In this document: one piece after another, positions 1,134 through 1,287 of the stretch
Layout: the number at the start of each line of letters is the position of its first letter
How positions within the stretch are numbered: position 1 is the first letter of the stretch
Assembly: GCA_963792415.1 (NCBI GenBank)
Contig: CAWBVY010000004.1
Span: forward strand, 448,001-512,000
Reading direction: 5' to 3'
DNA: 64,000 nt
From: Candidatus Deferrimicrobiaceae bacterium
Lineage (GTDB): Bacteria; Desulfobacterota; Deferrimicrobia; Deferrimicrobiales; Deferrimicrobiaceae
Program-made: the position numbers and the translations under genes
The notes under the pieces: generated by a model
Databases searched by the model: none
The model's input: the letters and a program-made list of their open reading frames with translations, nothing else
What the model was told of the DNA's origin: nothing

Positions 1134-1153
1134 AGCCGTGAGGAGTGACGAAA

Positions 1154-1249
1154 ATGGGTGAATGGATACCGTTGATCCTGTTTGCCGCCGTAATCGTCTT
1201 GTTTCGACTGCTGGGCGGTTCGGGGGGCGGTTGAGGCCCCCGGTGCTGA
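1154..1249 (+). CDS. Tiny single-TM peptide, candidate selenoprotein (26 aa to the UGA at 1232-1234; 31 aa with Sec readthrough)
   Basis: AGGAG RBS; MGEWIPLILFAAVIVLFRLLGGSGGG-UGA-GPRC-UGA; hairpin CGCCGGC-CGTGC-GCCGGCG at 1251-1269; too short for the ORF track. Confidence 0.55.
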
Positions 1250-1287
1250 CCGCCGGCCGTGCGCCGGCGACAGGAGGAGAGAAAGAG

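Follow-up and report, generated by a model that had tools for sequence, protein, structure and literature searches.

The window analyzed here is a 64,000-nucleotide (nt) stretch of the genome of a Candidatus Deferrimicrobiaceae bacterium (assembly GCA_963792415.1, contig CAWBVY010000004.1, positions 448,001 to 512,000). At positions 1154 to 1249 of its forward strand we found a very short open reading frame (ORF), here called the micro-ORF, which appears to be a real gene coding for a 31-residue, single-pass membrane selenoprotein, a reading to which we assign a probability of about three in four. The original prediction, made from the letters of the window, had proposed that readthrough of an in-frame UGA yields a membrane-anchored peptide with a U-x-x-x-C pair (where U is selenocysteine [Sec]), and the comparison of 30 distinct copies supports this proposal. 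We consider the micro-ORF a probable new family of micro-selenoproteins. The gene just upstream, which belongs to the FmdB family, is a second candidate of the same unusual design.

The sequence elements described in the original prediction are all present. A Shine-Dalgarno sequence, AGGAG (1141 to 1145), lies 8 nt 5' of the ATG at 1154, and relatives carry a GAGG-type purine run upstream of the start. The ORF, of 31 codons plus a stop, reads MGEWIPLILFAAVIVLFRLLGGSGGG, a TGA (1232 to 1234), the four codons GGC CCC CGG TGC (G-P-R-C), and a second TGA (1247 to 1249), with a predicted transmembrane (TM) helix from about W4 to L20 followed by a glycine linker, the candidate Sec27, and a tail that ends at C31. 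A single base separates this second stop from the stem of a hairpin resembling a selenocysteine insertion sequence (SECIS), at 1251 to 1269, which is thus wholly 3' of the true stop codon. The hairpin has a perfect 7-bp stem (CGCCGGC/GCCGGCG) and the loop CGTGC (1258 to 1262), located 23 nt from the first UGA, and on its own it folds with -13.6 kcal/mol. As a hairpin alone is only moderately unusual in DNA so rich in GC, the case for the micro-ORF rests on comparison across genomes.

Copies were collected from three sources. A DNA search over 61 related genomes matched the micro-ORF region in 34 of the 36 genomes that belong to the window's family. When a profile built from 22 peptides was run in all six frames over 401 genomes of the phylum, strong matches (E ≤ 5e-7) were confined to the same family (9 of 11 sampled genomes, together with the window's own), each with exactly one in-frame TGA. 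Two genomes from a second family of the phylum gave weaker matches, whose anatomy is identical on inspection; these copies read (M)ETLILIGVLVVIIALSRGGG-U-GSC-stop, followed by the hairpin. Last, a pattern scan of public genomes returned at least 120 loci, and among the matches listed 67 were in frame and 4 were genuine (L086, L105, L112, and L171). L105 duplicates one of the copies in the count, and the three further copies among the matches listed belong to metagenome-assembled genomes (MAGs) labeled Deltaproteobacteria and Deferrisomatales; the scan is uninformative on the total distribution. The final tally of 30 distinct copies spans eight genus codes in two families plus the three named MAGs, and all code for predicted membrane peptides of 25 to 33 residues. 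We left out a copy with a decayed helix (L026), one with a repeat insertion (L032), and a false match to the regular expression (L143), which has an upstream stop and no ORF. The weak profile matches outside both families (L057, L058, L059, L062, L067, L073, and L074) are each missing the membrane helix, the tail, or the hairpin and were rejected.

The original prediction had pointed to conservation of the ORF and of the sequence after the UGA as the properties to look for in relatives, with TAA or TAG at the same codon as a contrary sign. Both the ORF and, in its coding pattern (G-P-x-C or G-x-C), the sequence after the UGA are conserved, and the Sec codon is TGA in all 30 copies and TAA or TAG in none of them. 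The tails are GPRC in 16 copies, GSC in 8, GPGC in 2, and GPSC, GPKC, GKC, and GNC in one each, so that the C-terminal residue is invariably cysteine; the final stop is TGA in 28 copies and TAG in 2. In an alignment of 17 loci, the TGA, the next four codons, the second stop, and the hairpin are near-invariant, while the codons of the membrane helix vary freely, and in remoter genera the design is retained with a different sequence. Separately from this set, the excluded locus L026 (genome G021, same genus) has scrambled helix codons, although its TGA, GPRC tail, and hairpin persist, and is probably a pseudogene.

The variation within the tail resembles that of a translated sequence. Among 28 copies, the glycine codon after the TGA is GGC in 21, GGA in 3, GGT in 3, and GGG in 1, with its first two positions constant, and the other tail codons alternate between CCC and CCG for proline, among CGG, CGC, and AGG for arginine, and between TCC and TCG for serine. 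The two tail lengths differ by exactly 3 nt, a clean indel of one codon. In 17 same-genus sequences, changes at the first, second, and third codon positions number 14/8/41 over the 24 codons before the TGA and 2/1/4 over the 4 codons after it. This pattern points to translation and purifying selection that extend beyond the TGA, although the test covers 3 to 4 codons only and, given such a short tail and a terminal cysteine codon that is always TGC and never TGT, it is suggestive rather than decisive.

The hairpins were compared with the bacterial SECIS (bSECIS) model as given in the legend of Fig. 2 of PMC13188914, which specifies a loop of 3 to 9 nt that has a G as one of its first two bases, a stem of 4 to 16 bp, a distance of 16 to 37 nt from the UGA, and an energy of ≤ -7.5 kcal/mol. 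The micro-ORF hairpins agree with the model in every respect in 29 of the 30 copies, and the remaining one (L052) has a weaker 5-bp hairpin, CGGCA-GGG-UGCCG, 28 nt from the UGA. The stems covary, with compensatory changes among CGCCGGC/GCCGGCG, CCCCGGC/GCCGGGG, and AGCCGGC/GCCGGCU, and in some copies they have been replaced outright (AGCGCCCC/GGGGCGCU and GCCGCCG/CGGCGGC). A G is always found within the first two bases of the loop (CGUGC, CGGGC, GGC, GUC, or GGUC). Copies with the shorter tail mostly have a longer spacer after the stop (4 to 11 nt, versus 1 nt in the window; there is no spacer in the copies of the second family), by which the distance between UGA and loop is held at 17 to 28 nt.

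The carrier genomes examined code for components of the machinery that such a gene would require. The window's genome (100% complete, 2.84 Mb) contains a tRNA-Sec (74 bits) and SelB (324 bits), and its SelD gene and two FdhA (formate dehydrogenase alpha) genes each contain one in-frame TGA, with a hairpin with a G-rich loop 3' of the TGA in all three. On tRNA-Sec, SelB, SelD, and FdhA, the genome therefore has the Sec-decoding trait by which a bacterial selenoprotein gene is judged. All five other carrier genomes tested, from four genera, have a tRNA-Sec above the cutoff. The window itself includes a long-arm tRNA-like sequence at 4843 to 4935 (G000:C4:452843-452935) that scores 46.3 bits on the tRNA-Sec model, where the cutoff is 47; it is probably a tRNA-Ser or tRNA-Leu, the true tRNA-Sec of 74 bits being located elsewhere in the genome.

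The gene preceding the micro-ORF (896 to 1108, forward strand) codes for a zinc-ribbon protein of the FmdB family (53.9 bits against TIGR02605, cutoff 31.3). Its annotated end is the TGA at 1100 to 1102, and a second in-frame stop follows at 1106 to 1108, so the protein probably reads on as ...RRSPFG-Sec-Ala-stop. At all 19 loci examined beside a micro-ORF (L018 to L112), the first FmdB stop is TGA, followed by a single codon for Ala, Thr, Gly, Ser, or Arg (L112 has two codons), then an in-frame stop (TGA in 16, TAA in 2, TAG in 1), and after it a hairpin. In the window this SECIS-like hairpin, GGCCCGGC-GGUC-GCCGGGCC, is found at 1114 to 1133, and 19 nt lie between the UGA at 1100 to 1102 and its loop; with -18.3 kcal/mol it is the strongest such hairpin in the window. 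Its loop is GGUC in the loci with the gene order of the window (type A, described below) and in L112, and in the second family the stem is replaced (GAGGCC-GGUC-GGCCUC in L112, AGCGCC-GUG-GGCGCU in L079). The genome contains a single copy of the core of this hairpin, which rules out a dispersed repeat; the hairpin region has one other DNA match, at C4:336232-336263, which was rejected as a SECIS because it is inside an unrelated coding stretch. The same ending is found in two loci without the micro-ORF (L038 and L046). We also found 90 called FmdB homologs, and 17 of the 19 that were examined end where the TGA is, in ...SPF[G/S/R]; a cysteine at the candidate Sec position is found in none of these 19.

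FmdB-family (TIGR02605) selenoproteins from the GOS (Global Ocean Sampling) metagenome have been reported (PMC2398784; PMC13188914, Table 1). In those published forms, Sec replaces a cysteine of the zinc ribbon (CxxU in PMC2398784, UxxU in the table of PMC13188914), whereas here the four ribbon cysteines of the two N-terminal CxxC motifs (C8, C11, C30, and C33) are all kept, being invariant in 19 sequences, and the candidate Sec is penultimate, after ...RRSPF[G/S/R]. We therefore regard this FmdB subfamily as probably consisting of selenoproteins that end in ...C-x(9-10)-U-x. The locus would then have two neighboring genes that share one unusual design, which strengthens the reading of each.

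Several observations weigh against the selenoprotein reading. Many of the copies are close relatives and TGA is the commonest stop in GC-rich genomes, so that there are fewer independent observations than 30 out of 30 suggests. The folding of the hairpin region is statistically not exceptional, with a z-score of only -1.18 for a 66-nt fold against shuffled sequences, and SECIS-like hairpins with stems of at least 6 bp follow 31 of the 1,173 TGA triplets in the window (2.6%), 11 of them with stems of at least 7 bp. The nucleotide identity from the TGA to the hairpin is very high within the genus, which constraint at the RNA level would fit too, and the terminal cysteine codon does not vary. The function of the micro-ORF is read from its neighbors only. 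The main weakness is the missing cysteine homolog, as, according to reviews, such homologs exist for nearly all selenoproteins (PMC13188914, PMC12013277); this is a usual property of selenoproteins and not a strict requirement. A profile search of 1.84 billion representative proteins gave 11 matches, none of them a homolog with Cys for Sec, with the poor sensitivity that a 31-residue query entails, and the six-frame profile search of the 401 genomes, also of low sensitivity, gave none either. The exchange between TGA and TGC or TGT at codon 27 that the original prediction had suggested looking for did not turn up in any genuine form.

The most probable alternative is that the micro-ORF ends at the first UGA and codes for a 26-residue membrane peptide (...GGG), with everything downstream acting as an RNA element such as a stabilizer, a processing site, or a weak terminator. 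This is exactly the product that gene callers predict, and indeed they end the micro-ORF at the TGA, 10 of the 11 database matches being ORFs of 25 to 65 residues that stop there (...GGG). The lack of a cysteine homolog in both protein and genome searches, the statistically ordinary hairpin, and the very high identity of the stretch between TGA and hairpin within the genus would all fit such a scenario. However, an RNA element would hardly account for a glycine codon that varies at the wobble position only and through all four bases, for synonymous changes in the arginine and proline codons, for a difference in tail length of exactly 3 nt, or for a cysteine codon that directly precedes the in-frame stop in every copy, a stop that itself switches between TGA and TAG. 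In addition, the hairpin lacks a T run and was not scored as terminator-like (the terminator-like site of the region is at 1627 to 1639), and the neighboring FmdB gene has the same design. We thus consider termination at the first UGA unlikely.

Two further explanations seem to us less probable still. The micro-ORF could be a selenium-sensing leader peptide that tunes translation of a downstream DUF302 gene, the peptide itself being functionless, as the ORF is very short and, in the window and many relatives, about 5 nt separate the end of the hairpin from the purine-rich ribosome-binding site of the ORF that follows. Yet in 11 of 26 loci of the window's family (ten of them with an intact ORF) the micro-ORF is directly followed by a convergent folE, which leaves no downstream gene to regulate; in the other type of gene order the next gene codes for a thioredoxin and not for a DUF302 protein; and the residues of the membrane helix are under purifying selection, as judged from the codon-position counts given above. 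It is equally improbable that the UGA is read by insertion of an amino acid other than Sec (near-cognate Trp, Cys, or Arg) or that the region is untranslated. The Sec reading does rest on comparative evidence, which leaves room for such scenarios, but the Sec system of the organism is used in SelD and FdhA, the hairpin fits the SECIS model in nearly all copies and covaries, and the three-base periodicity of the variation argues against a lack of translation.

Two apparent cysteine forms were examined and discarded. The protein P0005, like the locus L032, has a cysteine at the Sec position, but its TGC derives from an inserted repeat element. This repeat, of about 50 bp and starting CAGGGGGGGACATACCTGG..., interrupts the micro-ORF in L032 (G001) and in the source of P0005, where it displaces the glycine linker and the TGA and brings in the TGC. 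The same repeat is found just 3' of the hairpin in L024 (G027), and it resembles a small mobile element or a miniature inverted-repeat transposable element (MITE). The other one, a Cys-rich peptide of G306 (MGYIIPLVLIG...GGCCGGG..., E = 0.0036 in the profile search), has an unrelated neighborhood.

The statement of the original prediction that this is not a described bacterial family agrees with our comparisons. None of the NCBIfam and Pfam selenoprotein models matched any of 22 members at E ≤ 10, and the only weak single Pfam matches among these members were PsbJ, TatA_B_E, and CydS, which are unrelated small membrane proteins. The 119-family table of a 2026 review (PMC13188914) contains no fitting entry, no small membrane family, and no GGGUG-type motif. 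A literature search found no small membrane-bound bacterial selenoprotein, although a family present only in the supplementary tables of BSepDB or deep-Sep could have escaped it.

The resemblance to SelK and SelS that had been suggested holds at the level of architecture. Like SELENOK and SELENOS, the micro-ORF product would have a single-pass anchor, a flexible, glycine-rich, cytoplasm-facing tail, and a Sec within the last few residues, and a GG-U-G motif surrounds the Sec of SelK and SelS as well. Membership of either family, on the other hand, was not borne out, as at E ≤ 10 none of the 22 members had a match to a Pfam model of selenoprotein K or S; the eukaryotic proteins are 3 to 6 times longer, reside in the membrane of the endoplasmic reticulum, and depend on a SECIS in the 3' untranslated region together with SBP2, so that this is an analogy of design only, without a sequence relationship. 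In SelS, the penultimate Sec188 has been proposed to form a selenosulfide with Cys174 (PMC3628699).

Among bacteria, the position of the Sec a few residues from the stop recalls the predicted families with an extreme C-terminal Sec in Table 1 of PMC13188914. Their SECIS must presumably also lie wholly or partly past the coding region. Their NCBIfam models matched none of the 22 members at E ≤ 10. These families are probably larger, soluble proteins. A literal U-G-S-C motif, as in the UGSC-containing protein (NF041046), is found in 8 of the 30 copies; unlike NF041046, which none of the 22 members matches at E ≤ 10, the motif here is the C terminus of a membrane peptide, and 16 of the 30 copies have U-G-P-R-C instead. 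The FeoB-associated Cys-rich membrane proteins (PF12669) have a short N-terminal membrane helix and then a tail rich in glycine and cysteine, and the micro-ORF resembles this general description of the family, but it has no Pfam match and no feoB nearby; the discarded Cys-rich peptide of G306 is of this type. We place the micro-ORF in a probable new family with an unusual layout for the known bacterial mechanism of Sec decoding: a membrane-anchored micro-ORF, a SECIS that falls entirely within untranslated RNA, and no cysteine form found.

From what is established about Sec decoding in bacteria, we can predict how the gene would be expressed. Translation would start at the ATG at 1154, and the hairpin at 1251 to 1269 would recruit SelB with Sec-tRNA(Sec), so that the UGA at 1232 to 1234 is read as Sec. 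Four further codons (G-P-R-C) would then be translated before the ribosome stops at the UGA at 1247 to 1249, which would be too near the hairpin for recoding. The location of the SECIS just past the stop, in untranslated RNA, follows from the fact that only four codons come after the Sec. The acidic N terminus and the arginine after the helix suggest an N-out/C-in topology, which would place the C-terminal Sec-x(2-3)-Cys pair in the cytoplasm, held by a flexible glycine linker at the cytoplasmic face of the membrane and within reach of thioredoxin and FmdB. This pair may cycle between a selenol/thiol and a selenenylsulfide, or it may bind a soft metal.

The gene neighborhood has two forms. Type A, that of the window, has the order PAS/sigma-54 activator, YgaP-like TM protein, FmdB, micro-ORF, and DUF302. 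In the window, the gene for the PAS/sigma-54 enhancer-binding protein (PAS, Sigma54_activat, and HTH_8 domains) ends at 480, and directly downstream of it, at 613 to 628 on the forward strand, there is a putative sigma-54-type promoter, TGGCAC-N5-ATGCA, the sole match to TGGCACNNNNNWTGCW in the 64-kb window, where 0.04 would be expected by chance. The first gene of the operon (693 to 884, forward strand) codes for a YgaP-like membrane protein with two helices (DUF2892; PF11127, E = 3e-11), and FmdB and the micro-ORF follow. Among the 26 loci of the window's family that were examined, the YgaP-like gene is upstream of FmdB and the order YgaP-like, FmdB, micro-ORF is kept in all, and the activator is present in 24. 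Where the convergent folE follows directly, its end is 39 to 42 nt after the TGA (122 nt in one locus), and the ORF that is not intact there is that of L026.

Type B, found in the second family and in a Deferrisomatales MAG, has an extracytoplasmic function (ECF) sigma factor, a zinc anti-sigma factor (H-x3-C-x2-C), the micro-ORF, a thioredoxin, and FmdB, with a TlpA-like oxidoreductase next in L078, the one locus that reaches that far. FmdB is thus the constant neighbor of the micro-ORF in both types. As the neighbors include a regulator pair of the disulfide-stress type and a thioredoxin, the gene neighborhoods suggest a role in thiol/selenol redox chemistry. The likely partner would be the co-encoded FmdB, which has a flexible tail with a conserved cysteine and an apparent penultimate Sec; thioredoxin or proteins of the DUF302 and YgaP types, within stress-regulated operons, are other likely candidates.

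Taking both genes together, we tentatively propose, at somewhat less than an even chance, an obligate-Sec module of two selenoproteins, a cytoplasmic FmdB-type zinc-ribbon protein with a flexible tail ending in C-x(9-10)-U-x and a membrane-tethered peptide of 25 to 33 residues ending in GGG-U-G-x(1-2)-C, each with its SECIS after the stop, which together with thioredoxin would form a relay at the inner face of the membrane for selenol redox chemistry or for the handling of metals or selenium. Such a module would be a bacterial functional counterpart of SelS/SelK or of the C-terminal-tail design of thioredoxin reductase, and an unusual selenoprotein family in having no cysteine version found.

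If the selenoprotein reading is correct, the product of the micro-ORF would be among the smallest selenoproteins known, and a membrane-anchored one. Genes of this kind would escape current pipelines, as homology-based methods depend on cysteine homologs (PMC13188914, PMC12013277) and the Sec-machinery step of BSepDB has an ORF minimum of 200 nt; bacterial selenoproteomes may therefore hold an unseen layer of micro-selenoproteins. A SECIS that begins one base after the stop and the failure to find a cysteine form bear both on the flexibility of bacterial Sec decoding and on the reasons why Sec is retained and not replaced by cysteine. The recurrent pairing with the micro-ORF is also a lead on the function of the widespread and uncharacterized FmdB family, and the type B operon places this pair beside a thioredoxin and a zinc anti-sigma factor.

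Some minor observations concern the surroundings of these genes. Just upstream of the window and divergent from the PAS/sigma-54 activator there is a gene for a MerR-family regulator (L077, 8587 to 8982, reverse strand), and a pyridoxal phosphate (PLP) enzyme of Cys/Met metabolism is located further upstream of the MerR gene in L077 and is also present in L171. Downstream of the micro-ORF, an ORF for 75 residues (1394 to 1621, forward strand) codes for a protein with a coiled-coil-like tail and one TM helix; no further ORF comes between it and the terminator-like site, and it is not conserved beside the micro-ORF in most relatives. Metatranscriptome contigs (three runs, three studies) cover the micro-ORF, but contigs are no proof of transcription, strand, or ends, DNA may be present in such libraries, and we gave them no weight; the RNA-library contigs X15 (1062 to 1336) and X17 (1138 to 1327) cross the hairpin, and X16, with no contig over the ORF, was uninformative. 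The gene that follows the micro-ORF in the window is a DUF302-like remnant of 24 codons (1289 to 1365, forward strand), as in a tblastn search only the N-terminal 23 residues of the L041 protein find a match there, and the DUF302-like gene is full length (about 127 residues) in 12 of the 26 related loci. Contigs of RNA libraries from two runs have a 7-base insertion (CGGAAAT) after position 1308, so strains differ in this decaying DUF302-like stretch.

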